Origin: Bacilli bacterium
Lineage (GTDB): Bacteria; Bacillota_I; Bacilli_A; ML615J-28; CAG-313
Length of the DNA: 64,000 bases
Reading direction: 5' to 3'
Assembly (NCBI GenBank): GCA_900752975.1
Contig: CAADXH010000018.1
Coordinates: 124,695 to 188,694 of the forward strand
The translations under genes were made by a program, and so were the position numbers. Shown here piece after piece: positions 8,055-35,804 of the stretch; the stretch's first letter is position 1, and every line of letters starts with the position of its first letter. The notes below the pieces were generated by a model that was not told the DNA's origin, searched no databases, and saw only the letters and a list, made by a program, of their open reading frames with translations.

Positions 8055-8059
8055 TTATC

Positions 8060-18720: not shown

Positions 18721-18729
18721 AAAATAACG

Positions 18730-18765: not shown

Positions 18766-18917
18766 AAATCTAATTCTAGATTTTTTAATTTTTCATTAAT
18801 CTAGAATTCCGCCGATGAATCCGTCACCCATGAGTTTCACCTACTTTGTTTATCATTTCCCTTCCTCCTTTCTGACTGATAGAATTTTTTATTCTATCAC
18901 TTTTATAATATGTAATT

Positions 18918-20717
18918 TTAAAATTCTGGATTTACAAATTTAACTGAGTCATCAGGTTGTACAGTTAATTCATATAGACAAAGAATATTTTCTTTAGAAA
19001 TATCTCTTACTGCATAACCATTCATACCCAATACTTGAATTTTAGCATTTGCTTGCTTTTCACATTCTTGATTTGCTTCTATTGTATAGACTGGTTTTAC
19101 AATAGCAGTGTCCCCATCATAGTCCATCCCCATTGCACCTATTAATCCGTTACAAATAGAAAGAGTATCTTCAAACAGAGGAGATGTATTTGAATTTAAA
19201 TCTTTTGCTTCGATAACAGGATACCATTTGTAGAGTTTCATATTATCTTCGAATCCAGATTGAACAACCATAGGACAAGTTTTTACAGTAGATTTGATTC
19301 TAACTTTAGATGGATACTGATTTAAGAATGAGTCAATAGGGAAACGTGTAATTAATACCATCTTATCTTCAGTAACATCACATGCTGCCATATAAAACAA
19401 ATCACACCACGTAAGTCCTCTTTCTATTTTTAAATCAGCTGAGTATTCCTTTTTTGTTTTATTATAATCTTTAGCATTGTTTAATCTATATCCACCAAAA
19501 AACATACCAAATTTTAATGACTTTAAATCAGCTTTCTTTCCAGTAGAAGTTTTTACTTCGTTATTTTTAACTCGCCTTGCAAATTCTTCTTTATCTACAG
19601 GAAGTTCTATTGGAATAAAACGATTAGAATAACCATGAATAAAACGTTCAATCTGTTTCTCTAGTTCTACATCAGAGAATGCTATCTGATAATCGACCAA
19701 GGGAACATAGACAAATTCATTTTCATTAATCGCAATTGGATATTCCATTTTACCAGCAAATCTATTTTCGAAGAAACGTCTTAACCAGAATACAATAAAT
19801 GGTTTGAAACAACACAATGCTGCTGCTAACGGTAATGCAGCATGATTCATATCAATCATTAAATCATCTATTTCTTCTCCTGATACATCTGGTGCAGACA
19901 TTACCAAACGTGCGGAATAGTCTACTGTTTTATACAATGTACCACGTTTAATTAGACCCATTTTACCAGGAAGATTTGCTGGGGTTTCCTGTCCATTAAT
20001 TGTAGTACCGTTACCAAACCAGTCAAAGATTTGAAGTAAGATATTCTGTACTCTCGCTTTAGTAACTTCACTTAAAGTCAAGCCAAAACCAGCAGTCTCT
20101 TTCAATGATTTTGTAGCCATAATCAGACTACTATATAACTTATTAATTTCACCCACACCAATACCGTTATCTCTAGATTCAACGTCACGATAATATGGTG
20201 GAATTACAATGTACTTTGTAATCCATAATTGGTCTTTGCTCTTTTGAATAAAATCGATTCTTTTATTACGAGAAGATGAATCATTCTTCTTAAATTTTAT
20301 TTTACTAAAGTTCTTTCTTAACCAATCAATACCTGTATTACCATCATCAGACTTCACTAATTCTCCGTTACTATCAATGATAAAATACTCAGTACCATTT
20401 ACAATACTTTCAATTTTATTATTTAACTTACATAAAGTCTTATATACAATTGGATGGAAAAAAGAACCTCCTAAATCAATATAAGCAAAGATACCAGAAC
20501 GTTCTGCTTTTGTAATACCAAAGATTTCATTTGATAATAAACCATCTTCTGTTGGTGTTGGACCATTGAAAAATACTGGGTTAGTAACTTCTTTTAGCAT
20601 ATTCACTTTAACAAACTTTTCCATATCCAAAAGAGAAGTTTTTAAGTGTTGTGTACTTGCTTCTGTAAAAAAATCAGTATCGTTTTTAACGATATTAACT
20701 GCTTCATCTATAATCAT
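18918..20717 (-). CDS. multisubunit RNA polymerase beta-prime subunit, N-terminal fragment (contains the catalytic DYDGD loop)
   Basis: VLITRFPIDSFLNQYP....GAMGMDYDGDTAIVKPVY aligns with bacterial beta-prime NRAPTLHRLGIQAF...YNADFDGDQMAVHVPL. N-terminal GLLSNEIFG...IDLG.SFFHPIV resembles the clamp region but lacks the zinc finger. SD GGAAGGAG precedes MIIDEA. Confidence 0.65.
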   Translation of the reverse strand: MIIDEAVNIVKNDTDFFTEASTQHLKTSLLDMEKFVKVNMLKEVTNPVFFNGPTPTEDGLLSNEIFGITKAERSGIFAYIDLGGSFFHPIVYKTLCKLNNKIESIVNGTEYFIIDSNGELVKSDDGNTGIDWLRKNFSKIKFKKNDSSSRNKRIDFIQKSKDQLWITKYIVIPPYYRDVESRDNGIGVGEINKLYSSLIMATKSLKETAGFGLTLSEVTKARVQNILLQIFDWFGNGTTINGQETPANLPGKMGLIKRGTLYKTVDYSARLVMSAPDVSGEEIDDLMIDMNHAALPLAAALCCFKPFIVFWLRRFFENRFAGKMEYPIAINENEFVYVPLVDYQIAFSDVELEKQIERFIHGYSNRFIPIELPVDKEEFARRVKNNEVKTSTGKKADLKSLKFGMFFGGYRLNNAKDYNKTKKEYSADLKIERGLTWCDLFYMAACDVTEDKMVLITRFPIDSFLNQYPSKVRIKSTVKTCPMVVQSGFEDNMKLYKWYPVIEAKDLNSNTSPLFEDTLSICNGLIGAMGMDYDGDTAIVKPVYTIEANQECEKQANAKIQVLGMNGYAVRDISKENILCLYELTVQPDDSVKFVNPEF

Positions 20718-20822
20718 ATATGTTTCTCCTTCCATATTAATTTATAAGATTGTTAAAGAGACAAAAAAAGAAAGCCTAACTCACGTCAGTCTTTCTTTAA
20801 TCCTTACAGATGATGCTTTTGA

Positions 20823-21065
20823 TTAGGGTTCATCATAATAATCTTCATCATCGTCATAGTAATCTTCTTCATAGAAGTTACCAGTTGCTTTCTCAACCTC
20901 CCTTTCGATATATTCTTTATAATCAGAAACAGCCTTTTCAGCTGCTTCTTTGGAGTTGTATTCTCCAATAAGAATAAAATAATCTTCTGGAAGAATACTA
21001 GAGATGCAAATTTCATCGTCGAAATCTTCAGTTGTGTAAGCATAAAAAGTTGTATTTGCGTTCAT
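20823..21065 (-). CDS. small acidic hypothetical protein
   Basis: Immediately downstream of the conserved leader copy A; ends ..EEDYYDDDEDYYDEP. Confidence 0.5.
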   Translation of the reverse strand: MNANTTFYAYTTEDFDDEICISSILPEDYFILIGEYNSKEAAEKAVSDYKEYIEREVEKATGNFYEEDYYDDDEDYYDEP

Positions 21066-21232
21066 GGTAATAGCCTTTTCCCTTCACCCTGGGAACATAG
21101 AATTTCTACGTCTGATGCTTGAGGTTTCAGGTATGCATCAACCTGTTTTCGATATAGAGTAATATTACTATCTCTATTCACTATAATTATATATAAATGA
21201 ATATACATAGTTTTACAAATATATACGCCTTA
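21066..21232. promoter_or_regulatory. bidirectional promoter + conserved 5' leader cassette, copy A (inverted repeat partner of 34505-34672)
   Basis: ~170 bp that is near-identical (with one 10-bp indel) to the reverse complement of 34505-34672. The leader half (21066-21160) abuts the ATG of 20823-21065. The promoter-motif half (21176-21219, ATTCACTATAATTATATATAAATGAATATACATAGTTTTACAAA) faces 21288. Confidence 0.65.
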
Positions 21233-21287
21233 TATAACCCACAACATAACTATAAAATTTTAATATAAAAGATTGGAGTTTTGATAT

Positions 21288-21482
21288 ATGGCTTTAGTAT
21301 GTGAAGAATGTATGAAAGGTGCACCTTACGCTTTCTGTTGCAAAAGAGAATGTGGAGAACATGAATTTTGTAGAGGTTGTACTTATCGAAAATCATTAGA
21401 AGAAACTCAGTGTTTCGATGATTCAATTGGATCAGAAGATTGGTTAAAAAAGTCTTCATCACTATTATCTGATTCATACTAA
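21288..21482 (+). CDS. small Cys-rich hypothetical protein (9 Cys in 64 aa)
   Basis: MALVCEECMKGAPYAFCCKRECGEHEFCRGCTYRK...; SD TGGAG. Confidence 0.5.
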   Translation: MALVCEECMKGAPYAFCCKRECGEHEFCRGCTYRKSLEETQCFDDSIGSEDWLKKSSSLLSDSY

Positions 21483-21504
21483 AATTTTATAAGGAGGTAA
21501 TAAT

Positions 21505-22062
21505 ATGAAAAAGCCTATTTATTATTACGCAGAAGAAACACCTCGGTTTGATGGGTATCATGTAGGACCACCTTGTCCTCCACCATATCCACCGTGCCCA
21601 CCTTGTCCACCACCGAAGCCACCAGTTCCACATTATCACGGTAAAGTAAGTGTTGTTGGACGTACTGTACTTACAGTTAAATATATTGATTGTCATGGAC
21701 ATTACCAAACATTTGATATTAGAGATGGTGAAACATATGAAATCAAAGCAGTATCTTCTACAAGAGGGATTTGTACATTTGCCGGTAGAATTGTGGATTT
21801 TGAATGTAATAAAGGAATCGAAAAGTTAATCGATAAACCACATGAAATCACAATCTCTGCTCTTATCGTAGATTATTCCGATGCATATGAAAGTAAACTA
21901 CTGAGATTATATGTAAATAACATTATCTCTATTAAACCAATTGTATGCTTTGATGGAAGAATGGATTATCCGACTCAGAAAGATTGTGATTGTCATGAGA
22001 GACCTTGTCCTCCCCCACCACATCATCCTGAACACATTTATGATCCATTCGAAGATATCTAA
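21505..22062 (+). CDS. Pro/Cys-rich hypothetical protein (PPCPPPYPPCPPCPPPKPP)
   Basis: SD TAAGGAGGT; N- and C-terminal CPPP-type repeats. Confidence 0.6.
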   Translation: MKKPIYYYAEETPRFDGYHVGPPCPPPYPPCPPCPPPKPPVPHYHGKVSVVGRTVLTVKYIDCHGHYQTFDIRDGETYEIKAVSSTRGICTFAGRIVDFECNKGIEKLIDKPHEITISALIVDYSDAYESKLLRLYVNNIISIKPIVCFDGRMDYPTQKDCDCHERPCPPPPHHPEHIYDPFEDI

Positions 22063-22113
22063 TAAATGGTGAAAGTTTTTACTTTCACCATTATTTATGA
22101 AAGGAGTTGCGTT

Positions 22114-22350
22114 ATGGAATTTTTTGATAATGTCAAAATGAATTCAAACCAATTTATTGACAGTAGATTCGAATTGGTTAGTTCATTACCAACTTCTAAT
22201 CTATTTGTAGGAAGATTAGTATTTAATAGTACTGACAATACACATTATTATTATAATGGAACTGACTGGGTTTCTATTATAGATTCTAAAGTATTTAATG
22301 ATACTATCGGTAATATTTCTGATGTTCTCGCATCTGTTGTGGAGGTGTAA
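22114..22350 (+). CDS. hypothetical protein
   Basis: SD AAGGAG precedes MEFFDN... Confidence 0.5.
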   Translation: MEFFDNVKMNSNQFIDSRFELVSSLPTSNLFVGRLVFNSTDNTHYYYNGTDWVSIIDSKVFNDTIGNISDVLASVVEV

Positions 22351-22353
22351 TTT

Positions 22354-23835
22354 ATGCCTACTATTTCAGATCAATTGACAACATTGATTGTTCAAAAGAA
22401 TAATCTAGTTGATAATTTAAACACAAAGGGTGTAACTGCATCAAGAAGTGAAAAACTCAATACTTTAGTTCCTAAAGTATTACAAATAAATTCTGGTAGT
22501 GGATTAGATACATCAGATGCTACTGCTACATCTAATGATATTTTATTAGATAAAACTGCTTATGTAAAAGGTAGTAAAGTTACAGGTTCAATCAAGTTAA
22601 AAGCAACTGCTACATATGTTCCATCAACAGAGGATCAGATTATATCTTCTGGTCAATATCTTTCCGGTAATCAAACTATAAAAGGTGATGAAAATCTTTT
22701 AGATGAGAATATTAAAACAGGTGTAACTTTATTTGAAAAAGTTGGTACTTTTACTTCAGATGCTACCGCTGCATCTAGTGATATCTTATTAAATAAAACC
22801 GCTTATGTGAATGGAGAAAAGGTAACTGGTATAATTCCATCTAAAGATAAACAAACTTTTACTCCATCTACTGAAAATCAGATTATATCTTCTGGACAAT
22901 ATCTTTCTGGAACACAAACTGTTCTTGGAGATAGTAATTTACTTCCAGAAAATATTAAAACTGATATTACAATATTTGGTGTTACAGGTACTCATGCAGG
23001 TGCTGATGAATTAACTGAAGCAACCGCAACAGAAACTGATATTAAATCAGGTAAGATTGCCTATATAAATGGTGGAGAAAAAGTAACTGGTAATGCATAT
23101 ACTGTAGAAAATGAAACCGGTATTACACCTGGCTTAAAAGATCAATTCTTACAAGCTGGATTTTATAATGGTATTTCTATTTCAGGAGATACTGAACTCG
23201 TTCCTGGAAATATTAGAAAAGGTGTAGAAATATTTGGTATTACTGGTATATATGAAGGTAGTGGCGGAAGTTCTTCTAGTGAACAAGTAGTATTTGAATG
23301 CGATGTTGAGGCATCAGAAGAAACAATTGTTTCTAATTGGAAAGGTTTAATTAAAACAAAAATGGGAACGGCTTATGCTGATATTGGAACTTATGTCTAT
23401 AATACTATATCAGCAATGGCATATAATACTAATAATAGTGATCTAATTAGTGGTATATCATATAAAAACGATAATAGTGATGATAACTACGGATTCTACT
23501 TTACAACACCAATTAATATCACTTCTAGTACAGTATTATTATATATTAGAGGATATGTGTCTTCATGGATTAACACAACATTGAATATTAATTTTATTCA
23601 AGCTGATTCAGTTGATGATATTGAAACCAAAATTAATAATAATGATTTTGTATACTCGTATCAGATACAATTTCCAAATACAATCAATTCTACACATAAT
23701 AATTTAACTAAACTAATTCTATATTTCAACTTAGAAAATATTGCATTGTCTGGAAATTATTATCTATATATTAATACACCACATACAGGTGGTAATGAAG
23801 CAATAATAAATAAGATTGTAATTATAAACAAATAA
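22354..23835 (+). CDS. tail-fibre-like protein with internal ~70-aa tandem repeats
   Basis: Repeats of D(T/A)SDATA.S.DILL.KTAYV.G.KVTG...PSTE.QIISSGQYLSG.QT. Ser/Thr/Gly-rich. Confidence 0.45.
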   Translation: MPTISDQLTTLIVQKNNLVDNLNTKGVTASRSEKLNTLVPKVLQINSGSGLDTSDATATSNDILLDKTAYVKGSKVTGSIKLKATATYVPSTEDQIISSGQYLSGNQTIKGDENLLDENIKTGVTLFEKVGTFTSDATAASSDILLNKTAYVNGEKVTGIIPSKDKQTFTPSTENQIISSGQYLSGTQTVLGDSNLLPENIKTDITIFGVTGTHAGADELTEATATETDIKSGKIAYINGGEKVTGNAYTVENETGITPGLKDQFLQAGFYNGISISGDTELVPGNIRKGVEIFGITGIYEGSGGSSSSEQVVFECDVEASEETIVSNWKGLIKTKMGTAYADIGTYVYNTISAMAYNTNNSDLISGISYKNDNSDDNYGFYFTTPINITSSTVLLYIRGYVSSWINTTLNINFIQADSVDDIETKINNNDFVYSYQIQFPNTINSTHNNLTKLILYFNLENIALSGNYYLYINTPHTGGNEAIINKIVIINK

Positions 23836-23846
23836 GGAGGTATAAT

Positions 23847-24704
23847 ATGAAAAGAATCTATAATAATGATATATCTCCTATAGAGATTACTAAAGTAACA
23901 GAAACAATTTATAAAATTTCATTTAGAGAAAACATCACTGCTATTACTACAAGTAAAGTTAGTTGTGATGAATATGAAATTTTTACAGAAAACTCTACTG
24001 AAGAAACAATTAATAAATTTGTAGAAACTAATAAAGAAATTCTATTAGAATCTGCTATTACACAAGATAAAATTAAAGAGAATCAAAATAAAATTGAAGA
24101 TATGCAAACTAGTCTTGCTAATACTGATTATAAAGTATTAAAGAATCTAGAAAACTTTATGATTGGTATTCCATTTGAAAGCGATCTATCTTCAATCTGT
24201 GCAAATAGACAATTGATGAGAGATTCGATTAATAATATTCAACAGGATATTTCTGATGATAATGATTTGCTAACACAGGCAAAACAAAGAAAAATTAATG
24301 AAGTTAGTCTTATTTCTCAGTCTATGATTATTAATGGTGTAGAATATGGTGGTAAACGATATCGCTTAAATACAACTGATCAAATTAATATATCTGCATT
24401 AAGTGCTATGGCACAATTAGGTAATAAAGTTCCTTATCATGCTGATGGTGAAATTTGTAGAATCTTTGAGCCTGAAGAGATGCTAGCATTAACCAAGACT
24501 GCAACTAGTTGGGTTGTTTATCATACAACATACTTTAATCTTTTAAAGCATCAGATTCTAGAATATGATAATATAGATGATGTCAATAAAGTATATTATG
24601 GAATTGAATTAAAAGACGAGTATCAAAAAATTATAAATACAATTGTATCTAGTAATAGTAAAGCAACTACTACAGGTGGTGATACAAATGAAAGTAATGA
24701 ATAA
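23847..24704 (+). CDS. hypothetical protein
   Basis: SD AAGGAGGT; 285 aa. Confidence 0.55.
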   Translation: MKRIYNNDISPIEITKVTETIYKISFRENITAITTSKVSCDEYEIFTENSTEETINKFVETNKEILLESAITQDKIKENQNKIEDMQTSLANTDYKVLKNLENFMIGIPFESDLSSICANRQLMRDSINNIQQDISDDNDLLTQAKQRKINEVSLISQSMIINGVEYGGKRYRLNTTDQINISALSAMAQLGNKVPYHADGEICRIFEPEEMLALTKTATSWVVYHTTYFNLLKHQILEYDNIDDVNKVYYGIELKDEYQKIINTIVSSNSKATTTGGDTNESNE

Positions 24705-25125
24705 AATATTTGAATATATTGTATTATCTTGGATTGGCGGGTCTACTTATGTAGCACTAGAAGTTTTATTTAGAGGTAGAAGTCATTGGACAATGTTTAT
24801 CTTAGGAGCGATTTGTTTTATTCTGATTGGATTAATTAATGAGATATTACCTTGGAAAACACCAATCGAACTTCAAGCCCTATTAGGTGCAGGATGTATT
24901 ACAATATGTGAATTCATAACCGGATGTATTGTAAATTTATATTTAGACTGGAATATATGGGATTATTCTAATATGCCGTTTAATATTCTAGGACAAATTT
25001 GTTTACCATTTACAATACTCTGGTTCTTTATTAGTATTCTCGCAATTGTATTAGATGATTGGATACGCTATATTATGTTTGATGAAGAAAAGCCTCATTA
25101 TATCTCTATCTTTAGAAAGAGGTGA
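24688..25125 (+). CDS. small membrane protein (about 4 predicted TM segments); holin-like candidate
   Basis: SD AGGTGGTGA; hydrophobic stretches such as IVLSWIGGSTYVALEVLF and MFILGAICFILIGLINEIL. Confidence 0.4.
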   Translation: MKVMNKIFEYIVLSWIGGSTYVALEVLFRGRSHWTMFILGAICFILIGLINEILPWKTPIELQALLGAGCITICEFITGCIVNLYLDWNIWDYSNMPFNILGQICLPFTILWFFISILAIVLDDWIRYIMFDEEKPHYISIFRKR

Positions 25126-25129
25126 TATT

Positions 25130-25816
25130 ATGCAAGTATTAACAAAACTTGACATGACTAAAAACCAAATTTTAAATGTGGTTATTCATAAAGTGGATTC
25201 CGATCCTTCTGTGTCTTCTAAAGATGAAGGCATGATGATTTATAATCGAATTGAAGAAAAATTAAAATACTTCAATGGGAAAGAATGGATTGTCATTGGA
25301 ACAGGTAGTGGAGGAACTACAATTAAGATTGATAGTGTTATTAATGACCAATCTACAAATGATAATGCTGCTGGTTCTAAAGCTGTAGTAGATTATGTGA
25401 CTCTAGCTGTATCTGAATTCAGTGGTATTGTATCTTCGATTAAAAAGATACAAGGAAATTCTGTACTTAAAATTATGTCTGATGGAACAATTGTTGGAGT
25501 TAAGATTGATTCCGAAGTAACAGAATCTTCAAACAATTTAGTTACATCAGCAGCGGTTTATAGTGCAATTAAAACAATTGCTGGTACTGTTACAAAAGCA
25601 GATTATTCTTGCCCTACTATTACTGGAACAGATAACAAATGTGTATGGGAAATTGAACTAGAACATACAACACCAGCAGTTGTTGTACAAGTTTATAATA
25701 ATTCAAATGAGATGATATTTGCTAATATAAAAGATGAAACGAATAAAATTACAATTACATTCAATGGTATTACTAGAATATCTTCTGGAACGTATCATGC
25801 TATTATTATATATTAA
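25130..25816 (+). CDS. hypothetical protein (fibre/structural-like, Ser/Thr-rich)
   Basis: SD AAGAGGTGA; 228 aa. Confidence 0.45.
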   Translation: MQVLTKLDMTKNQILNVVIHKVDSDPSVSSKDEGMMIYNRIEEKLKYFNGKEWIVIGTGSGGTTIKIDSVINDQSTNDNAAGSKAVVDYVTLAVSEFSGIVSSIKKIQGNSVLKIMSDGTIVGVKIDSEVTESSNNLVTSAAVYSAIKTIAGTVTKADYSCPTITGTDNKCVWEIELEHTTPAVVVQVYNNSNEMIFANIKDETNKITITFNGITRISSGTYHAIIIY

Positions 25817-25830
25817 AGGAGGTATTAATT

Positions 25831-26838
25831 ATGAATAATCAAATTCCGACTGTATTCATTGATTCTGATAAACCTGAATTAGTTTGTGGAATTAAAACTT
25901 GTGATTGTCCAAAACCGCAACCACCAGAACCTAAGAAATATCATCAACATCCTACTGTAATTAATAGACCGTATTCTGATATGCCAGTTCCTGGTCCATA
26001 TGTTCCTGATTATGAGACTCTTGGTGCTGAACCAGCATCTCCAATTCCAGTACCAAATACATACTTAGCTCCTGGTCATCATTGTCATAATCATCATAAA
26101 CCAGAATGTCATTGTCACCCAGACCATAACATTCACCCATTTGAATGTCATGATGATGGTCCATATGTAACAAAGCATGAATTAAATCATATTCTTGCTC
26201 ATATCGCAGATGCAGATATCTTCAGAGATTTATCAGAAGAAGGTACTACTGTTTCTGTAGGTGGTATTAAAAAGGGCACTAAATTAGACTCTATGACATT
26301 TGCCAGATTTGTAAAGCTAATGATGTATCCAGACCTCAATATGGATGATGAAGAATATGCTTGTGAAACTGATAGTGGTAGAACTGTATTAAACTCTACA
26401 GTTAAAACTGCTATTGGTGATTTAAAAGTAGGAGATTCTTTAAAAGGAATGACAGTCTCTCAAATTCTAGAAGCTATGTTATGTGGTAAGAATAAATGGG
26501 GTACTTATTTATGGAAGTCTGATGTAACGTCTGTTGAAGCAGGTACTACTACATTAGATGCCGAAGCATTATTCCCTAAGCTTGTAGAAGATTATGATTG
26601 GCGTCATACTTATGAATTGTTAGTGGTTTGTAAGAATGAAGATAAAGAATCCGAAGACAAATTTGTTTATAATGAATTAATAGCAAATATTTATAATAAA
26701 GACCAAAAAACTAATGTATCAATTGAAGGAGTTCCAGCTGACTTGAAATGGAGTTATAATCCTGAAAGTAAGAAGATTACACTTCATACAGATACAGAAA
26801 TCACTACAGCAATTGCTGTTGTTTTAGTAAGAAGATAA
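25831..26838 (+). CDS. His/Cys/Pro-rich hypothetical protein
   Basis: TCDCPKPQPPEP ... GHHCHNHHKPECHCHPDHNIHPFECHDD; SD AAGGAGGT. Confidence 0.55.
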   Translation: MNNQIPTVFIDSDKPELVCGIKTCDCPKPQPPEPKKYHQHPTVINRPYSDMPVPGPYVPDYETLGAEPASPIPVPNTYLAPGHHCHNHHKPECHCHPDHNIHPFECHDDGPYVTKHELNHILAHIADADIFRDLSEEGTTVSVGGIKKGTKLDSMTFARFVKLMMYPDLNMDDEEYACETDSGRTVLNSTVKTAIGDLKVGDSLKGMTVSQILEAMLCGKNKWGTYLWKSDVTSVEAGTTTLDAEALFPKLVEDYDWRHTYELLVVCKNEDKESEDKFVYNELIANIYNKDQKTNVSIEGVPADLKWSYNPESKKITLHTDTEITTAIAVVLVRR

Positions 26839-26924
26839 AACATTAGGAGGGATTTTTATAATCCCTCCTTCCATTTTTACTTCTTTAACATTTCAATAAT
26901 TATAAATGTAAGGAGATGGTATTA

Positions 26925-27647
26925 ATGGATACGCCTAGCTTCATTAAAGTAAAAGGTGATTCATACTTATTTGCTAATGATGGTACATTCAAATTCTATG
27001 TACCTGAAAAGTATTTCTCCAACAAACTTGCTGTATTTGAAGGAGAATGCATTAATTTATTCGGAATGTTATCTTATGCTATCTTTGATAAGAATGACAA
27101 ACCGATTGGAAAATTAAGAACTTTTAAATTCCCAATCTCATTTCTAACAAAACCAGATGAAATTGAAATTGCAAAACAAATTAAGCTTACAACTAATAAC
27201 AAACCTGATGATTATAGAATTTTAAAATATCATAAAGATGGTGTTATTGTTGTAAATTATAATATTGCAGAAGATGCTGAAAATATTCAGCGTTGGTATT
27301 CTGCATTGGACACTGGTGCTTTACCAAATAACTTGCCGTATAATGAATTACAAAACTATTTCATTAGAAATATACAGTTAACTGGAAATAAGTACAGTGT
27401 TTCGTTACAATTAATCGGTGTCGTTGTTAGTGAACTATGTCGCTCTAGAAAAGACATTGATAAACCATTTAGATTGGAAGATTCGAATGATATGAACGCT
27501 TATCAATGGATGTCAATTAAGGATATTCCTAGAAGTACATCTCCATTTACAGCGTTACAAGCAGAAGAGTGGGATAAAGCTGTTATCTCTTCGATTACAG
27601 TAGATTCTCAAAAGGATTCTCCTCTAGAGAAAATTATGATGGATTAA
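26925..27647 (+). CDS. hypothetical protein
   Basis: SD TAAGGAG precedes MDTPSF... Confidence 0.5.
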   Translation: MDTPSFIKVKGDSYLFANDGTFKFYVPEKYFSNKLAVFEGECINLFGMLSYAIFDKNDKPIGKLRTFKFPISFLTKPDEIEIAKQIKLTTNNKPDDYRILKYHKDGVIVVNYNIAEDAENIQRWYSALDTGALPNNLPYNELQNYFIRNIQLTGNKYSVSLQLIGVVVSELCRSRKDIDKPFRLEDSNDMNAYQWMSIKDIPRSTSPFTALQAEEWDKAVISSITVDSQKDSPLEKIMMD

Positions 27648-27770
27648 GGTGGTTATATTTTAACATATTGATAAAGGTCATAGCTAACGCTATAGCCATA
27701 AATACCACATTAAATAACATATAAGATTAACACACACATTTTTAATTTATTTTATAAAGGAGGATAAAAC

Positions 27771-30700
27771 ATGAGTAGATATCCTGGCACTCAATTTAAA
27801 GTGCATGATAATTCTCAGGCTACAGCTGTTGTTCCTGTATCTAATGCCAATACCGCTGATGCAGTGCAATATTTAACTACCTTTGCATCTGTAAAGGGAC
27901 CTGAAGGAATTACTCTTACCTCTGGTGAAGACTTTTACACTAGATATGGTACTCAGGACAACATTGATTTTAAAAAGTATGGTCAACCGTTATTCCAAGC
28001 ATCTATGAATGTAAATAATGGTGCAGCTTTACTTGCAAAAAGAGCAGTGTTAGATGATGCTTCTCTTGGTAATGCTACACTTGGTGTTGTATTAACTAAG
28101 TATAAGAATGCTAAGATTACTGTAGACGAAACATATCCAGAACTTATTAAGTCGATTACATTTGATGATAATAAGACTTCTAAATATTCGATCGCTCCTA
28201 TGGTATTTAGCATTGACAATGTAAATGAATATAAGTATGCTAAGTCTGAAGTTTCTGAATATAAAGAAAGATATGACTTATATAAGAATTATATTGAAGA
28301 CGTTATTGCCAATGAAAATACACCAAATGCTGAATTCTTAAATAAGCTTTATGGTAAAACAGAAAACGATGTAATCCTTAGTGGTTTTACTCAGTCTGTT
28401 TATTATAATAAAGACGGTAAGCTAGTTGATGTTGAAGCTGATGGTAAAGGCGATGTTCGCAAAGTAAGTTCCATTACAACTGGTTTGAACTATCAAGTTC
28501 AAAAGACTTTCTCTAGTAACTTTGATGCAGAAATGGATATCATTGATGCTGGTAAAGGTGTTAAAGGAACTGGAATCGATTCTACTAATCATATCAACGG
28601 ATGGACTATTTATCAACTTAAGAAATCAAAAGAAGAAGATGCTACTGCTGCTAAAATAAAGTTTGAATCTGTTATAACTCAAGTTACTTATAAAATGCCG
28701 GTCGAAAAGAATATTCCGATTGAAAGAATTATTTATTGTAAGGCCAATGAAGCAGAAGCTAAGTTAAAAGAAATTGTTGATGTACATCAAGATTGGTTAG
28801 ATGCTGATTTCGATGCTGATAATGCTAATATCTTTGCTGTTATCATTGATTCGGATGTAGCTACAACAGAAGTTAAGACACACGGTTATACTTCTACAAT
28901 TCGTCTTATGAATGACCTTATGGTTCAGAATAGTGGGTATGTAGAATGTGAATATGTATTCCCGATGTTCACTATCTTTGATAATGGTCGTGGTCAATCT
29001 ATTAAGTCGATTTCTATCGATTATGATGCAGCATCTTCTATGACACTTAAGAAGGCTTTGTATTCATTGTCTGTATATAACTATGCAACTGCTAAGAAAT
29101 TGGAGAAGTTCTCTTTCTCTTTGAATCCATATGCAAGAAACAATAATACTGGTTATTCTTTTGACATTGAATCTGCTGTTAATTATGTATCCAAACAGAT
29201 TTCTGTAAAGACTTATTATGAATCTTATGATGCATTGCTGGAAACATTGCAATTGATTATGGGTTCTAATGACAATACAATTATCGAAAGCAACGATATT
29301 CTGTTTGGTCATAAGTTGAATGGTTCTTATCCTGCATTCAATTCTTATCAGGTTTCTACAATCCTGAAGAGAAATACTTATATTTATGACTATGCACATT
29401 TGGATGTATTTGATAGTGATGTTATTACTGTAAATGCATATTGTGATAGCGATAATATGACACTTCTCCCAACTAAGGATTACGTGCCAAAGGTTAAGTA
29501 CTACTTTTATAACTATATCAGACAACAAAAAGGACTTCTTGAAAGACTTGAAATGGGTACTGATGGTTATTGTCTGTCTAGAACAGCAGATGCTGCAAAG
29601 ACTGAAAAAATTGTTCCATTCATCGTAATTGACGAATCTGATAATGTGTATAGTCAGGATGAATATGAAGCAATCTCAACTTTGATTATGCTTACTGGTC
29701 AGAAGAATGGTACTGTTATTTCTGCAACAGAAGGTGACATTGGTTTAGCACCTGTAGTAGCTAGTAACTTTATTGAAGTTATTCTTGGTTTGCGTGAAGT
29801 TGAATATTATGAGAATGGTACAAAATCTACTGATGGTAAGAAGTATCTGTTATCTCATAATGAAAATACTTTACATAAAGCAAATGTTCTAGAAAATGGT
29901 GCAAATATTCCGACTACATTTACTGGTTATGTATTCACAGCATCCACTGATATTACTCCAGTAACAGTATATGTTCCATATTCTAAGGACTTTATGTATC
30001 AAGAACATTATAGAAGATTCTTCTCTGGTGAATTTGATAAGGATATCTTCAATCTTGACGTATACTTCCCTAATGCAGTTTTCGATGCAAACTATTCTAC
30101 TAGAACAAAGCTTGCTATTCAGAGACTTGCTGCATATAGAGGTGACTTTATGTGCTATATGGATATGGGTATCGGTAATGTAAGTAGCTATGCTGATTGT
30201 TATGATATGATTCCATCTACTTCTGGTGGTTTGGAATTGACTGAAGAAAACAATAGTTATAGCTATGTAAGAGATATGCATATCGCATTGACTTGCTTAT
30301 ATTATAAGATTCGTAACCCATATGATAACAAGGTTATTTCTGTAACAGCAACTTATGGTCTATCGAACTTGTATATCAATCATTTTGCTAATGACGTAAG
30401 TAAGGTATTCGCTGGTATTTCTAACGGTATCACAATTAATAATGCTATCGAAGGTAGTATCAACTATATTCCTAAGATTTATCCAACTAGTGAAATGACA
30501 TCTCTGAATAACATCGGTGGTGTATATCCGTCTGAAGACGAAACTATTATTAATGAAAAGCAGCTTATGTGTGACCTTAAGGTTAACTATGGCTGTTATT
30601 ATGATGATAGATTCTCTATCGAAACTGAATATACCATGAATCCGACTGAAAGCGAATTCTCTTATTGGAATAACGTTGCTCTTGTATGCTTGATGATGCA

Positions 30701-30974
30701 GGCTATTAGAAAGGCTTGTCCATCTGCAAGATATCAGTTTATTACAGCAAATGATTTGTCTGTATATAAGAACGCTGTTGAAGCTGCAATGGAACCTTGG
30801 AAGAACAAGTTTGCTGATGTCAAGTTCAAGTATGTACAAGATGAAAACGCTGTCGAAAGTAAGATTTTCTATGCTGCTATCGAAGTTGTATTTAAGCCAT
30901 TTGCTCAAGCTGAAATCTTTGAACTAACTGCACTTAATTACTCTACTTTGTCTAGCACTATTACAAATGTATAA
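27771..30974 (+). CDS. large hypothetical virion-type protein (1067 aa)
   Basis: SD AAAGGAGGA; long uninterrupted ORF. Confidence 0.6.
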   Translation: MSRYPGTQFKVHDNSQATAVVPVSNANTADAVQYLTTFASVKGPEGITLTSGEDFYTRYGTQDNIDFKKYGQPLFQASMNVNNGAALLAKRAVLDDASLGNATLGVVLTKYKNAKITVDETYPELIKSITFDDNKTSKYSIAPMVFSIDNVNEYKYAKSEVSEYKERYDLYKNYIEDVIANENTPNAEFLNKLYGKTENDVILSGFTQSVYYNKDGKLVDVEADGKGDVRKVSSITTGLNYQVQKTFSSNFDAEMDIIDAGKGVKGTGIDSTNHINGWTIYQLKKSKEEDATAAKIKFESVITQVTYKMPVEKNIPIERIIYCKANEAEAKLKEIVDVHQDWLDADFDADNANIFAVIIDSDVATTEVKTHGYTSTIRLMNDLMVQNSGYVECEYVFPMFTIFDNGRGQSIKSISIDYDAASSMTLKKALYSLSVYNYATAKKLEKFSFSLNPYARNNNTGYSFDIESAVNYVSKQISVKTYYESYDALLETLQLIMGSNDNTIIESNDILFGHKLNGSYPAFNSYQVSTILKRNTYIYDYAHLDVFDSDVITVNAYCDSDNMTLLPTKDYVPKVKYYFYNYIRQQKGLLERLEMGTDGYCLSRTADAAKTEKIVPFIVIDESDNVYSQDEYEAISTLIMLTGQKNGTVISATEGDIGLAPVVASNFIEVILGLREVEYYENGTKSTDGKKYLLSHNENTLHKANVLENGANIPTTFTGYVFTASTDITPVTVYVPYSKDFMYQEHYRRFFSGEFDKDIFNLDVYFPNAVFDANYSTRTKLAIQRLAAYRGDFMCYMDMGIGNVSSYADCYDMIPSTSGGLELTEENNSYSYVRDMHIALTCLYYKIRNPYDNKVISVTATYGLSNLYINHFANDVSKVFAGISNGITINNAIEGSINYIPKIYPTSEMTSLNNIGGVYPSEDETIINEKQLMCDLKVNYGCYYDDRFSIETEYTMNPTESEFSYWNNVALVCLMMQAIRKACPSARYQFITANDLSVYKNAVEAAMEPWKNKFADVKFKYVQDENAVESKIFYAAIEVVFKPFAQAEIFELTALNYSTLSSTITNV

Positions 30975-30991
30975 GAAAGGAGGAATAGTCT

Positions 30992-32107
30992 ATGGCAACT
31001 CATAACACAGCCACTTCTGTAGCAAATAGTGGTGCATTTAAGGGATTGAAGACTCCTAGAGAACTTTTGAACTACAACCTTATGAGAGGCGTTACAGACT
31101 TCAGTAACCTGAAACAATGGGATTTGTATGAAAAAGGTTATCCATTCTTAGTAGTTGTTTCTATTCCTGACTTCTTGAAAGACTTAGCTGCTAGAGATGA
31201 TAATGTAAAAACTATCGTCAACAACTATGTCCATATTCTTGAAAATGACTTCCGTGGTATCGATAACATTGATAATATCACTGGTGAATCTGGTGGTGAA
31301 ATTACCAACGGTATTAGATCGATTCAATTGATTAATAAGGTTACCAAAGCTTCTAACTCTAACTTCTCGTTACAGTACTATGAACGTTCTGGTTCTATCC
31401 TTACTAAGGCACACGAACTATATCTAACTGGTATTAAAGACCCAGACACTCAGGTTAAGCATTATCATGGTCTTATCGACGACTGGGTTTTCAAGGGCAT
31501 TGATGGTCCAAACCGTAGTGGTAGTGACCCAGGTCCACATAGAGAATGCTTCACATTCATGTATTTCATCACTGATAATACAATGACTAAGATTGAACGT
31601 GCATTCTTGATTGCTGCTTGTCAACCTACAACTGCAAACTATGGTGATTTGTATAGTGGTAATAAGGGTGATATTACATTCGCTGAAATCTCCTTGTCGT
31701 TTAACGGATTCTTCATCAACAACGACTATGTATATCAGAAGGCTGAAGATATGTTGTTAGCTATGCGTAATCCTAAGAACCTCACCGATTCTAGAATTAT
31801 CGTTGATAGCAACAACTTTAGATATTCTGCAATTGCTAAAGCTGGTGTTGATGCAGGTAATGAAACTGATAAGTTCGCTACTCCGAATTATTGGAGTGAA
31901 AGTGAAGGTCGTGTTGTTTCTAGCGACGACATGAAGACCGTAATTTCGGATCCGACTGCTGCATATGTAGACTCAACTGATGCTCCTGGTACTTCTAATG
32001 GTAAACCTACCGGTGATTTGGATGTTTATAAGAACGTCGTATCTTCGATGCAAAGCAAAGAACATTTAACTGACGATACTTATAAAACTAGTGGTGATAA
32101 TAATTAA
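30992..32107 (+). CDS. hypothetical protein
   Basis: SD GAAAGGAGGAA; 371 aa. Confidence 0.6.
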   Translation: MATHNTATSVANSGAFKGLKTPRELLNYNLMRGVTDFSNLKQWDLYEKGYPFLVVVSIPDFLKDLAARDDNVKTIVNNYVHILENDFRGIDNIDNITGESGGEITNGIRSIQLINKVTKASNSNFSLQYYERSGSILTKAHELYLTGIKDPDTQVKHYHGLIDDWVFKGIDGPNRSGSDPGPHRECFTFMYFITDNTMTKIERAFLIAACQPTTANYGDLYSGNKGDITFAEISLSFNGFFINNDYVYQKAEDMLLAMRNPKNLTDSRIIVDSNNFRYSAIAKAGVDAGNETDKFATPNYWSESEGRVVSSDDMKTVISDPTAAYVDSTDAPGTSNGKPTGDLDVYKNVVSSMQSKEHLTDDTYKTSGDNN

Positions 32108-32114
32108 AATAAAT

Positions 32115-32148
32115 TCCCAGATGGAGAAATCCATCTGGGATATTTTTA
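32115..32148. terminator. bidirectional rho-independent terminator between convergent genes
   Basis: CCCAGATGGA-GAAA-TCCATCTGGG hairpin followed by TATTTTTATT. Confidence 0.7.
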
Positions 32149-34455
32149 TTCTTCACCACTATCTTCATTTGACTCAGCTGCAACTCGTTGCTTTGCTTTA
32201 TGTGCAATATCTTCAAGTTCAGGGATATTAAGATAAGAACCGAGATTAAATTTATTAATCTCACGAATTACTTCATTCTTTACCGGTTCTTCTTCATCAG
32301 GGTCAAGAATTAACTGTGCGACACTCTGAGAATATTCATTTACGTTTGTCATCATTTGGTTTGTATTTGTAATGTTCAAGAACATTGGAGGTGGTAAAAT
32401 TACAGAAGTTTGAATATTATCATCAAATTCATTATTATAAATTTTATTGAAAATACGAGTAAGATTCATCTGAAACTTACTCTGTCTATTATATACTTTT
32501 CTCAAGAACTTACTAGATGACATTGTTAACTGAGAAGAATAGTCTACAGTATTTCTCATCTGAATCATTTCCATCGGAACATCTGTACTATTTACAGACA
32601 TTTCTTCTAGCATTGTCATAAATTCAGTTTGATATTCTACCGATTGTCCTTGCATAACTTCAAAATCAATTGGAGAATTACCACTAGGACCTCTAGGAAT
32701 AATATAGTCATTAAACATACCTGTGATATTCAAGATATGGTTAATATTTTCAATTTGTCTGATACCAAAGTTACCTTTTTTAATTTGATTAATGGTATTA
32801 AGAAGTGTTTTAGATATATTTGTATCAACAGTCTGATTTACATAGTATACTCTTTTATCCTGTGCTCTAGTCATATTCCAAATTGCATGAGTAATATAAT
32901 TTGCACAATATAATGTAGCTGGGAACATTGCTTTATCTAAATCGGAAATACCTCTATGGGTATCTTCATTCATTTTGAAATAGACATGTTCCATATCATC
33001 TGGTGGGATAAATGTAACTCGAACCTTATTCATATGGGAACTATTATTATCATAATTAAACTTAAGAACTGTATAAATTTCGTTTCTTAAGTCTTGATTT
33101 GCATTGATAAATTTTGCATCGATGAAATTAGAAATTTGGTTTGCAATATAACGAATAATATTGTTTTGTTTTGTAGACTGGTCAAGCATACTATTTGTAG
33201 ACAAAATAGAATTAGAACCTTTTAAAGACATTGTAGGGTCTTGCATCTTATCATAATCACCTACCGGATTATATGGACCATCTACTTCAATATAATAATA
33301 TCCAAAACAATAATTTTCAATATAAATTGGAATAACATGTTTTCTTTCCAAAATCTTTACAATTGTACCTGGGACATTAATATATCTATCGTCTTTTGAT
33401 TTCTTCTTTGCTTTATTCTTATCTACTAATCCTTCTTGACCTCTGTCATCAAATCCTTCAAAAGACAAATCGTCTTTAATTGTCTTCTGGAATCTTCCCT
33501 TTACGACATCTCGTATATTATTAGCTGATTCTTCGATTGTTTCCTCAGAAAAATCTGCACCTTCGTAATTTAACGACATCTCGTTTAATGAACGAGATGC
33601 TTTTTCAAATCGCATAATATTTTCTACAACAGAATTAATTGCACCTGTATAACATTCAAGTTGTATATTGTTTAATCCAGCTTGTTCAAACATTTCTGGT
33701 GTAATTTCTTTTGGTAATTTATCCATTTCAATATTACCAGATTCTGTAATAATTGTGTGCTCTTTAATATCCAATTCAGCACGAGTATTATTCTTTTGCT
33801 TTAATAATCTTGCTACGGCTTTCTTATATGGAACAATATATACAAATGCTTCTCCATACTTAGAAGCCTGGTCATAGATTTCATCAGTTAAATCCTGGAA
33901 TTTATATGTTTCCTTAATAAACTTAATATGTTCATTATAAGTTTCAGAATCATTTGTAATACTTGAAGAAGTCACATTGATAAAGTCTTTAGAAAAATGG
34001 TCAGCAGATAATACATTATCTTTTCTAGTATCCAACGCTTCTTGTAATCTTGGCATATATTTAAGAATCGTATCAATCTTATTATCATAATCAAATACAG
34101 TAGTTGTATCATTAATAAAGCCCATTAATCCAGCTTCAATAACTTGACTGTCGTTAATAAGAGATTCAAGACTTTGTCCACCTTCTTTATTTCCAGGTTT
34201 AATAGAACTTCCTTGTTGTTGCATTCTAGAATAGAGTGTACTCATTGTACCTCTACCAGTATTATCCATATTAACCGATACAATATTATCTATAGAAGAG
34301 TCTAGTTTATTCTTAATCGATTCAAGGTCTTGTTTATTAGATGCTTGTGAATAGTATGTTTTACTATATAGATTATCTAGACTATTTTGAATTGTATTAG
34401 AAAGTCTATTGATAATACTAGTAGATGATCTTTTCTTTTCATCCTTTTTAGCCAT
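32146..34455 (-). CDS. large hypothetical protein (769 aa); structural candidate
   Basis: SD AAAAGGAGGT; driven by the promoter-motif half of cassette copy B. Confidence 0.55.
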   Translation of the reverse strand: MAKKDEKKRSSTSIINRLSNTIQNSLDNLYSKTYYSQASNKQDLESIKNKLDSSIDNIVSVNMDNTGRGTMSTLYSRMQQQGSSIKPGNKEGGQSLESLINDSQVIEAGLMGFINDTTTVFDYDNKIDTILKYMPRLQEALDTRKDNVLSADHFSKDFINVTSSSITNDSETYNEHIKFIKETYKFQDLTDEIYDQASKYGEAFVYIVPYKKAVARLLKQKNNTRAELDIKEHTIITESGNIEMDKLPKEITPEMFEQAGLNNIQLECYTGAINSVVENIMRFEKASRSLNEMSLNYEGADFSEETIEESANNIRDVVKGRFQKTIKDDLSFEGFDDRGQEGLVDKNKAKKKSKDDRYINVPGTIVKILERKHVIPIYIENYCFGYYYIEVDGPYNPVGDYDKMQDPTMSLKGSNSILSTNSMLDQSTKQNNIIRYIANQISNFIDAKFINANQDLRNEIYTVLKFNYDNNSSHMNKVRVTFIPPDDMEHVYFKMNEDTHRGISDLDKAMFPATLYCANYITHAIWNMTRAQDKRVYYVNQTVDTNISKTLLNTINQIKKGNFGIRQIENINHILNITGMFNDYIIPRGPSGNSPIDFEVMQGQSVEYQTEFMTMLEEMSVNSTDVPMEMIQMRNTVDYSSQLTMSSSKFLRKVYNRQSKFQMNLTRIFNKIYNNEFDDNIQTSVILPPPMFLNITNTNQMMTNVNEYSQSVAQLILDPDEEEPVKNEVIREINKFNLGSYLNIPELEDIAHKAKQRVAAESNEDSGEE

Positions 34456-34504
34456 ATAGTATACCTCCTTTTAATATTTACTAAATTGTTGAAATGAGTA
34501 AATT

Positions 34505-34672
34505 GTAATGACTTTGTAAAACTGCGTATATTCACTTATATATAATTATAGTGAATAGAGATAGTAATATAAGCTATATTCTATATCGAAAACAGGTTGA
34601 TGCATACCTGAAACCTCAAGCATCAGACGTAGAAACTCTACGTTCCCAGGGTGAAGGGAAAAGGCTATTATC
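34505..34672. promoter_or_regulatory. bidirectional promoter + conserved 5' leader cassette, copy B
   Basis: Reverse complement matches 21066-21232. The motif half (34514-34557) faces 32146-34455. The leader half (34576-34672) abuts the ATG of 34673. Confidence 0.65.
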
Positions 34673-35122
34673 ATGACCAACACAACTACTGCAACAAACA
34701 ATGCAATCGCTTCCGCTACGACAAACGGCTTTACCTTTGAAGCTGTGCTGAATGAAGTATCAGTTACTGATACAATGCACGCTACAATGGTAGAAACAAT
34801 GTTCAACATTGTTGTCACCAACACAGTAAGAAAGGGGGTACATGTTACCGAAAACTATCTCAAAAGAATGAACGAAACGTTCGAAAAGTTTTTAAAAGCA
34901 ACCAAAATCAAATATGTCAAGTCGGATATCGATCTTGACAGAACATTTGATGAAAAAACATTCATCTTTGAAGCAGACAAAGATGAATGGGAAGAAAATG
35001 CAATCAGCTTGATTGCATTATTAAAGAAAGAAAGAATCACATTTGACGAAAATACAGAAGAAGGATTTATCTGCTATGATGAATCTCAGAATTCTGAAAA
35101 AGATTTAATTATCGTCGAATAA
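34673..35122 (+). CDS. hypothetical protein (Thr/Ala-rich N-terminus)
   Basis: Directly follows the conserved leader; 149 aa. Confidence 0.5.
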   Translation: MTNTTTATNNAIASATTNGFTFEAVLNEVSVTDTMHATMVETMFNIVVTNTVRKGVHVTENYLKRMNETFEKFLKATKIKYVKSDIDLDRTFDEKTFIFEADKDEWEENAISLIALLKKERITFDENTEEGFICYDESQNSEKDLIIVE

Positions 35123-35143
35123 GAATTTCAACTGAAAAAGATA

Positions 35144-35178
35144 AGAACGCACTATTGCCAAGTGCGTTCTTTTTTTGT
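35144..35178. terminator. rho-independent terminator
   Basis: AGAACGCACT-ATTGCCA-AGTGCGTTCT hairpin followed by TTTTTTT. Confidence 0.7.
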
Positions 35179-35801
35179 TATAAACATAAAAATTTCATAA
35201 AGGTTCTTACGTCTTTAGATTTGTGGGATATGAATTCTACTAGAAAATACGAATTACCATTTGTATAATATATCTTAGCATCTAAGTCTGTCTTCTTAGT
35301 TCCAGGAAGCATATTCGGAGCCAAGTAGATAGCTCGATTATCTAAAATATATTTTGATACTCCATCAGCAGCTTTGTTTAATAATACATTGTTGTAAAAC
35401 ATTTCGTCATTATTAAGACCAGATATATTTTTTATATCATTAGCAGTTGCGATGTCCATAACAATCGATTTTAAAGAATTCAAAGCTTTCTCGAATAACT
35501 GGATTGCATTAAACTTTGTGATATAATCCATATTCTCAAGAACCCCAACTTCTGTTTCATATCCAACTGTCTTTCCTAAGATTGCATTAACTGAATACAT
35601 CTTGTTTAGATACTTCTCATGAATGTTATCACAATTAATCAAAATCACACTTCCAGGATTATTAACAAACAAAACATCTCCAAGTGTATTATCTCTTATG
35701 ATATAGAAATATTCGTTGGTAGATTTTAGTTTCATATCTTTTATATATGGTATAAAAATCTTCCCACTATTTTTCAGTTCTTCTCCAAATATGTTATCCA
35801 T
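35178..35801 (-). CDS. hypothetical protein
   Basis: SD TAAGGAG; 207 aa. Confidence 0.55.
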   Translation of the reverse strand: MDNIFGEELKNSGKIFIPYIKDMKLKSTNEYFYIIRDNTLGDVLFVNNPGSVILINCDNIHEKYLNKMYSVNAILGKTVGYETEVGVLENMDYITKFNAIQLFEKALNSLKSIVMDIATANDIKNISGLNNDEMFYNNVLLNKAADGVSKYILDNRAIYLAPNMLPGTKKTDLDAKIYYTNGNSYFLVEFISHKSKDVRTFMKFLCL

Positions 35802-35804
35802 TTA

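Follow-up and report, generated by a model that had tools for sequence, protein, structure and literature searches.

We analyzed a 64,000-nucleotide stretch of contig CAADXH010000018.1 (assembly GCA_900752975.1, positions 124,695 to 188,694; the whole stretch is called the window below), in which a 13.3-kb block of phage virion genes is enclosed by two inverted copies of a sequence of about 160 nt. The plus-strand part of the block (21288-32107) carries an open reading frame (ORF) for a Cys-rich protein of 64 residues as well as genes for tail-fiber-like proteins, virion structural proteins and a 1067-residue protein; its minus-strand part (32146-34455) encodes a portal-like protein of 769 residues, and a small ORF begins at the outer end of each arm of the repeat. 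The explanation that we favor, at a probability of roughly 0.7, is that the arms are two members of a dispersed set of promoter-plus-leader modules in a gut jumbo phage, built like the early promoters of phage AR9 and at times exchanging sequence with one another.

The inverted repeat and the phage that carries it

A repeat search of the window recovered the pair in two segments, I1 (21062-21161 against 34577-34676; 100 nt, 96% identical) and I3 (21162-21219 against 34513-34570; 58 nt, 95%). In a global alignment, the two arms (158 and 164 nt) agree at 151 of 158 positions (95.6%), with 7 mismatches and one 6-nt indel (34571-34576), a similarity far above the chance level. All seven substitutions are transitions. 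The homology ends abruptly past ...GTTTTACAAA on the side of the virion genes (21219 and 34513) and, at the opposite end, 4 nt within each small ORF (21062 and 34676); these limits run exactly from an upstream promoter element to a start codon, that is, they enclose a promoter and a 5′ untranslated region (5′UTR). The two small ORFs behind the arms (80 and 149 residues) are unrelated to one another (BLASTP E = 3.4). When the window was searched for the 29-nt core of the AT-rich promoter part, exactly three sites were found at no more than one mismatch, where none is expected by chance: the two arms and a third copy at 56831-56880, which is joined to a different leader.

An earlier note on this DNA had described a near-identical inverted repeat around a virion block, set next to non-homologous small genes, and had proposed comparing the stretch with itself and with related genomes. 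The description holds, and both comparisons were run: the first returned the inverted pair plus the third copy, which the note had missed, and the second placed copies at the same loci in relatives, five of which are collinear with the window through one of the repeat junctions. Its figures need correcting, since the alignment has 7 mismatches where the note gave about 4, the indel spans 6 nt and not 10, and the homology stops at 21219/34513 instead of 21232/34505. The structured leader of some 95 nt that it had placed against the ATG does run up to the ATG; its folding is only moderately better than that of shuffled sequences (figures below).

A megablast search with 20000-36000 against 50,697 phage records gave no match. 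Protein comparisons were more informative. The 769-residue protein matches the portals of Bacillus phages AR9 and PBS1, of Staphylococcus S6-like phages and of Yersinia phage phiR1-37 (about 24% identity, E = 1e-41); PHROGs assigns 18918-20735(-) to an RNA polymerase (RNAP) beta-subunit family (phrog_2986, E = 2.6e-83), without distinction between the virion and the non-virion enzyme sets, and 35805-37862(-) to DNA polymerase. Portal, an ORF of 207 residues (35178-35801(-), with no family match of its own) and polymerase, all on the minus strand, follow the order and orientation of portal, DnaQ-like exonuclease and polymerase in AR9. Because of the portal match, the RNAP beta-like gene and this AR9-like gene order at the portal end, we conclude that, judging from its genes, this human-gut phage is a distant relative of AR9 and PBS1 that encodes a multisubunit RNAP. 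Phages of the AR9 type have two multisubunit RNAPs and are transcribed independently of the host enzyme; in AR9, early promoters have the form AAATATATATTAT-N6-G and are read by the virion RNAP, while late promoters, of the form AACA-N6-TA/G, are served by the non-virion enzyme (PMC5312081).

Putative early-type promoters directed to the small genes

Read towards the small gene, the AT-rich part of the repeat consists of TTTGTAAAAC, 11 nt, ACTTATATATAAT, TATAGT, a G and AATAGAG. Its ACTTATATATAAT-TATAGT-G agrees with the AR9 early consensus at 10 of 13 positions and has the same 6-nt spacer and G start, whereas in the outward reading of the motif only 6 of the 13 agree. Roughly one in four AR9 early promoters also carries an upstream cCGTATtAAA, with GTA at -37 to -35 (AR9 Table S2; PMC5312081), and the GTA of TTTGTAAAAC (tGTAAAAC) lies at that same distance. 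Mapped AR9 early RNAs typically start with GAUA or GAAU, as the predicted RNAs here would. A position-weight matrix made from 37 mapped AR9 promoters and scanned over the window ranks the three copies 3rd, 5th and 8th, with the +1 positions given in Table 1, and seven of its nine top matches are intergenic and correctly oriented upstream of ORFs.

The modules extend well beyond the window. Three exact patterns (the palindromic core, part of the leader and the 21-nt core TATATAATTATARTGAATAGA) were scanned against IMG/VR, which yielded 18 stretches, and against metagenome contigs, which yielded 32. Sixteen of the former and about 28 of the latter are true family members, about 40 in all; a handful of matches with the R = A variant, all in unrelated contigs, were set aside as chance matches. 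The members sit in jumbo-phage contigs of about 213-219 kb, some of them labeled human gut, and there are at least seven per genome, in both orientations (one 215-kb contig carries seven). All true members have a leader behind the core, then a Shine-Dalgarno sequence and a small ORF with its ATG. Seven of them (L008, L012, L013, L014, L016, L018 and L020) are without the far palindrome arm TATTCAC and TTTGTAAAAC but keep the core, leader, Shine-Dalgarno sequence and ORF, and in L010, found through its leader alone, the AT-rich stretch has diverged and TTATAGTGAATAGAG is kept. The invariant part is thus the core and what lies downstream of it, which gives the conserved unit a direction, towards the small gene. 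The two arms in the window are two oppositely oriented members of this dispersed family and not a private pair; they are inverted because two early units lie on opposite strands at the ends of the late-gene block.

The 10/13 match, the identical spacing, the G start and the directional conservation are our reasons for reading the AT-rich part as a putative early promoter of the virion-RNAP type, directed to the small gene through the leader. The flanking sequence is consistent with this. Each of the outward virion genes would be driven by an AR9-type late promoter of its own, AACA-N6-TA, just outside the repeat (Table 1). Of 52 genes in the window, 12, with the giant ORF and the portal gene among them, have AACA-N6-T[AG] at 20-75 nt upstream, where 5% would be expected (p = 1e-5), and across homologues the distance from late motif to repeat varies from 4 to 36 nt. 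AR9 early promoters, too, are often divergent from late virion genes, as found experimentally for g120/g121 and g152/g153 (PMC5312081). Since the intergenic regions here are divergent, early in one direction and late in the other, we take the repeat itself to be the early promoter plus 5′UTR.

The earlier note had seen one bidirectional promoter in each copy, with a motif facing the virion genes. In such an arrangement the palindromic AT-rich motif would fire outward as well as inward, and the motif does have a 7-bp inverted repeat, TATTCAC-N15-GTGAATA. The weak outward match to the AR9 13-mer, the absence of the outward arm from many functional-looking copies and the late motifs that the virion genes possess just outside the repeat make this quite improbable; of that proposal the divergent intergenic region stands, with the motif in the repeat pointing to the small gene. 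The 7-bp palindrome is found at 21175-21203, 34529-34557 and 56833-56861, its right arm covering the predicted start; a dimeric regulator could have its operator here.

It is unlikely, in our estimation, that the module is instead a host sigma-A/sigma-70 promoter (TTGTAA, a spacer of 17-18 nt and TATATA or TATATT) of the kind used by T4-type phages for early genes. A promoter scan does call TTGTAA-18-TATATT at 34503-34532, with 9 of 12 matches. However, sigma-70-like matches in the two regions are no commoner than in shuffles, nothing is called at the copy 1 motif, conservation reaches well past the -35 and -10 hexamers, up to +8, and AR9-type phages do without the host RNAP; the AR9 consensus and spacing are the better fit.

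Apart from the late motifs outside the repeat, a few signals lie within the leaders themselves. On the strand antisense to the first type of leader (type A, below), at 21128-21145(+) and 34593-34610(-), there is a terminator-like hairpin, CAGGTATGCATCAACCTG and then TTTTCG, which faces the late promoters and could keep read-through transcripts out of the late genes. The sequence AACAGGTTGATG in the same leader resembles the late motif and was considered as a late promoter; it is not conserved in homologues, which have GACA or TACA, and we rejected it. The type B leader of copy 3 contains an invariant late-type motif, AACAAACCTATA, at 56712-56723(-), starting at 56723 and hence within the early 5′UTR.

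Table 1. Predicted elements of the three units, late motifs, leader classes and 5′-terminal stems in the window (copies numbered by position; lengths are given for leader classes)
Feature	Position or length	Strand	Remarks
Enclosed late virion genes	21288-34455	+ (21288-32107), - (32146-34455)	by PHROGs and portal match
Candidate late motif AACATAACTATA, AR9-type	21243-21254	+	34 nt upstream of ATG 21288, outside repeat
Candidate late motif AACAATTTAGTA, AR9-type	34479-34490	-	35 nt upstream of portal ATG 34455, outside repeat
Candidate late motif AACATATCTATA, AR9-type	56901-56912	+	upstream of very long ORF starting at 56943
Copy 1 predicted early promoter	21180-21219	-	upstream element TTTGTAAAAC 21210-21219, 11-nt spacer, 13-mer ATTTATATATAAT 21186-21198, spacer TATAGT 21180-21185
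Copy 1 type A leader	21066-21179	-	114-nt 5′UTR, predicted +1 G 21179; four predicted hairpins, then Shine-Dalgarno AAAAGG
Small early ORF 1	20823-21065	-	80 residues, very acidic, no known family
Copy 1 terminator-like hairpin and T-run	20762-20798	-	read from sequence; late-type motif AACAATCTTATA for the RNAP beta-like gene comes after it
Copy 2 predicted early promoter	34513-34552	+	TTTGTAAAAC 34513-34522, 11-nt spacer, 13-mer ACTTATATATAAT 34534-34546, TATAGT 34547-34552
Copy 2 type A leader	34553-34672	+	120-nt 5′UTR, predicted +1 G 34553; 6 extra nt in loop of first hairpin
Small early ORF 2	34673-35122	+	149 residues; on opposite strand, between portal gene and 207-residue ORF
Copy 2 terminator	35143-35178	+	11-bp stem and T-run, bidirectional
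Copy 3 predicted early promoter	56838-56877	-	one mismatch in 29-nt core
Copy 3 type B leader	56672-56837	-	166-nt 5′UTR, predicted +1 56837; first 7 nt GAAUAGA as in type A, otherwise another sequence class
Small early ORF 3	56150-56671	-	173 residues from ATG behind GGAGG; internal duplication
Copy 3 bidirectional hairpin	~56100-56145		read from sequence
Leader class A	114-120 nt		window copies 1 and 2
Leader class B	166 nt		window copy 3
Leader class C	~140 nt		sister clade; internal module in common with B
Leader class D	~85 nt		L013, L018
Predicted start 18898	18898	-	8-bp stem from +1; background probability 0.003
Predicted start 39073	39073	+	6-bp stem from +1; background probability 0.019
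Predicted start 11169	11169	-	6-bp stem from +1; background probability 0.019
Predicted start 7997	7997	-	5-bp stem from +1; background probability 0.055

Leader classes, probable exchange between loci and block orientation

At least four leader classes stand behind the same promoter (Table 1). All of them start with GAAUAG(A), to which a CUCUAU, UCUAUU or CUAUUC located 20-45 nt further downstream is complementary; the two would form a 5′-terminal stem, beginning at the 5′ end or within about 2 nt of it if the predicted +1 is right. For 18 distinct type A leaders RNAalifold gives four hairpins, in which all stem changes are wobble-compatible and the variation in length, including the 6-nt indel between the window copies, is confined to the loops of the first and third hairpins. 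Compared by eye, one hairpin of type B varies among copies between GUAC/GUAC and GCAC/GUGC; MAFFT misaligned this hairpin. Most type A leaders also contain an ATG-NNN-ACC-TGA that resembles an upstream ORF, at 21125-21136(-) in copy 1, of which only the middle codon varies; it is probably coincidental, having no convincing Shine-Dalgarno sequence. Four other predicted starts in the window likewise open with a stem, of 5 to 8 bp (Table 1).

If the features are put together, the mode of action would be as follows. The multisubunit RNAP packaged in the virion would recognize an extended AT-rich promoter (GTA at -37 to -35, the 13-mer, 6 nt and a start at G) and transcribe towards the small gene through a conserved 5′ leader of 110-170 nt. 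The first bases of that leader, GAAUAG, would pair with their downstream complement into a 5′-terminal stem. Translation of the small, unrelated early ORF would begin at a start codon behind a Shine-Dalgarno sequence, and a terminator belonging to the unit would close it. The flanking virion genes would be switched on separately, by AACA-N6-TA late promoters outside the repeat. Stem-loops at the 5′ end of the ompA type stabilize mRNA (reviewed in PMC3997798), and by analogy the leaders most likely provide early mRNAs with a protected 5′ end and an open ribosome-binding site.

A number of results weigh against this picture. On the promoter side, the matrix scores of the three copies (11.8-12.5 bits) are not above the best scores of shuffled windows (mean 13.2), which makes the scan weak when taken alone, and the long motif is present at only three sites in 64 kb against 41 early promoters in the 251 kb of AR9 (PMC5312081), so it may mark a special subclass. 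Start site, timing and polymerase are predicted from sequence, by analogy with a phage whose portal is only about 24% identical. The picture assigns no role to the palindrome TATTCAC-N15-GTGAATA, whose left arm is absent in several homologues. On the leader side, RNAalifold found no compensatory double changes among 28 pairs in type A (18 sequences) or among 32 pairs in type B (10 sequences), only wobble changes and loop indels, and the folding of single sequences is modestly better than that of shuffles (z = -1.0 and -2.0 for copies 1 and 2, respectively). The 5′ stem of each class also appears in 10-25% of shuffles and is significant for no single class, and a hairpin at +1 is not enriched at 38 mapped AR9 starts (mean stem 2.18 against a background of 2.41). 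If real, the +1 hairpin would be a feature specific to this clade.

The leaders could also be something other than generic stabilizers, namely specific cis-regulatory RNAs, such as a repressor or nuclease site or a ligand sensor, or processed small RNAs. Two of the long leader classes keep their sequence before unrelated ORFs to a high degree, beyond what a 5′ hairpin needs, types B and C share an internal module, and the AR9 authors themselves predicted motifs in early 5′UTRs that they left unexplained (PMC5312081). Rfam, however, returned nothing at the gathering score over the whole window and nothing relevant in all three copies even at E <= 5-10; the missing covariation in types A and B tells against this option as well, as does the lack of a known partner protein. 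We regard it as doubtful, and keep to the stabilizing role as the more probable one.

The near-identity of the arms can be followed across related phages. We sorted the type A copies into loci G1-G4 by the ORF that they precede, G1 being the copy 1 locus and G2 the copy 2 locus. The relatives are 93.5-98% identical to the window, and the paralogous arms (95.6%) are as alike as orthologues despite the unrelated genes behind them. In the comparison of leaders, window copies 1 and 2 differ by 4 events, copy 1 and its own orthologue by 5. The G3 leader in sample ERZ1034976 has 2 differences from the G2 leader found there and 10-14 from other G3 orthologues, and in ERZ773224.18 the G2 copy has the insertion in the loop of the third hairpin (P3) that is typical of G3 leaders. 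Leader variants are thus mosaic between loci and, to judge by this pattern, leaders are occasionally exchanged between them. The arms would accordingly owe their similarity to selection on the module together with such exchange, and the repeat is probably a regulatory module of promoter plus leader placed ahead of unrelated small genes. An assembly artifact, or a very recent segmental duplication without function, would likewise yield arms of such high identity. It is hardly credible here: several samples, assembled independently, have the same copies at unchanged loci, and it is the regulatory region alone, not the neighboring genes, that they have in common. Between recent duplication and strong selection, the choice that the earlier note had left open, selection is upheld, with probable sequence exchange added, and a recent non-functional duplication is not.

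That note had also raised the possibility that the block inverts. The arms would then be recombination substrates, homologous or site-specific, by which the 13.3-kb virion block flips between two genome isomers; they are about 160 nt long, inverted and nearly identical, and the apparent exchange of leaders indicates that copies can recombine. The comparisons point the other way. L010 is collinear with 7418-21292, through copy 1, and L003, L037, L040 and L025 are collinear through copy 2, so that all five of these relatives keep the window's arrangement across one junction or the other; every G2 copy seen adjoins the portal-side flank, where gene orientation is that of AR9, and contig 128423 has the two copies in an unchanged relative orientation, at a distance of 13,474 nt. 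PHROGs detected neither an integrase nor an invertase family in the 20 ORFs scanned in and around the block, nor did Pfam in the 8 ORFs scanned with it. The repeat, moreover, is not specific to the block, and its ends match a promoter and a start codon rather than a crossover core. We therefore see no sign of inversion in these assembled sequences, in which rare flipping within a population would not show; we consider flipping very unlikely, and on these comparisons read the inverted repeat as a regulatory building block rather than a DNA-flipping switch. The invertible segments of phages Mu (G) and P1 (C), with the Hin/Gin/Cin systems, similarly have inverted repeats around a block with tail-fiber-like genes; they differ from the present case, in which there is no invertase found and no alternative orientation, the repeats are generic and occur elsewhere in the genome, and the block comprises 13 kb of core virion genes.

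Relation to known systems and further features of the window

The closest counterpart is the set of early promoters, read by the virion RNAP, of AR9 and other jumbo phages related to phiKZ (Lavysh et al., 2017; PMC5312081). Common to both are the extended AT-rich element, the 6-nt spacer, the G start, GTA at -37 to -35 in a subset of AR9 promoters and an initial transcript GA(A)UA, and in both there are many promoters per genome, ahead of small non-structural genes and often divergent from AACA-N6-TA late virion genes. They differ in that, of the 13-mer, 10 positions agree here, that the conserved stretch is longer, at about 60 nt, and takes in +1 to +8, and that the promoter here is a predicted one. 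Moreover, most AR9 early UTRs are of 26-50 nt, whereas leader classes of 114-166 nt are fused to the promoter here, and AR9 early RNAs are without the +1 hairpin that is predicted for ours.

The PeSL cassettes of T4-type phages are likewise repeated units of early promoter and hairpin that lie between genes, mostly before ORFans, also inside virion and replication modules, and whose copies bear traces of having recombined (Arbiol et al., 2010; PMC2839356; PMC4122927). PeSL, however, uses a host sigma-70 promoter and a stem-loop that terminates upstream transcription, unlike the AR9-like promoter and the hairpins within a long 5′UTR described here, and it is associated with mini-circles and ORF shuffling, whereas here only an apparent exchange of leaders is seen. 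As to the 5′ stem, Emory, Bouvet and Belasco reportedly characterized the 5′-terminal stem-loops of ompA and papA as mRNA stabilizers in 1992. The predicted leaders resemble those stabilizers (PMC3997798) in having a predicted helix at or near +1 followed by an accessible ribosome-binding site, and differ in that the start site is a prediction.

What is new here is the fusion of an AR9-type early promoter to conserved leader classes and its reuse as a cassette; the promoter type itself is known. More tentatively, in this clade of gut jumbo phages, independent of the host RNAP, a subset of virion-RNAP promoters may have become hard-wired to a few long structured leader classes, as PeSL-like cassettes that recombination moves before new ORFans, in which case the leaders would be a new kind of cis-acting phage RNA. 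They might, for example, shield the 5′ end from nucleases of the host or the phage, or offer an operator to a post-transcriptional phage regulator that times the shut-off of early genes. What had looked like a rearrangement signal would in any case become a regulatory map of a gut jumbo phage that is AR9-like and uncultured, with early starts, late promoters and terminators predicted on it, and both AR9 promoter grammars (AT-rich early and AACA-N6-TA late) appear to reach very distant relatives. The leader classes and their exchange offer a testable case of modular promoter-leader cassettes in phages with their own multisubunit RNAPs. Such cassettes could serve as expression parts in these systems; current understanding is not overturned.

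Each of the three units (promoter, leader, small unrelated ORF and terminator) is self-contained, and searches of the small ORFs against Pfam and PHROGs found no family. In AR9 the DnaQ-like exonuclease gene has the position of the 207-residue ORF, and by this comparison the copy 2 unit seems to have been inserted, on the opposite strand, behind the ORFs ahead of the DNA polymerase and next to the portal gene, thus between the two. The product of ORF 1 is extremely acidic, with a Tyr/Asp/Glu tail that suggests a DNA mimic. It has only five close homologues in the protein database and no sequence match in the PDB, and its AlphaFold2 model is of low confidence (predicted local distance difference test score, pLDDT, 62); similarity to the Ugi-like uracil-DNA-glycosylase inhibitor of AR9 was considered and dropped, being insignificant (E = 0.03 over 19 residues). 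ORFs 2 and 3 and their counterparts in L001-L052, although otherwise unrelated, have Asn/Thr-rich N-termini with an NN(A/T)IA(S/T)AT-like stretch, which could be a shared signal or a preference in translation initiation.

Further candidate early promoters of the AR9 type lie directly upstream of ORFs at 39073(+), 11169(-), 7997(-), 3958(-) and 4453(-). Another AR9-like candidate is found in the intergenic region 18721-18917, with a predicted start at 18898(-); its RNA would open with a perfect 8-bp hairpin (GAUAGAAU/AUUCUAUC), followed by a strong Shine-Dalgarno sequence, a mini-ORF of 10 codons, more hairpins and a terminator, and this RNA could be a small RNA in its own right or simply a short transcript of the early phase. 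A tRNA search of the window found none. Elsewhere in the window, 5417-6433 and 6499-7422, both on the minus strand, form a tandem pair of paralogous genes that are 78-91% identical across several segments, and 5420-5530 has a 111-nt inverted match (83%) at 55359-55469, within an ORF of 699 residues (54003-56102), which probably reflects a common coding domain. Finally, the ORF at 43454-44491 holds four tandem repeats of 87-102 nt that encode acidic (Asp/Glu/Gly-rich) sequence, at 43562-43936.

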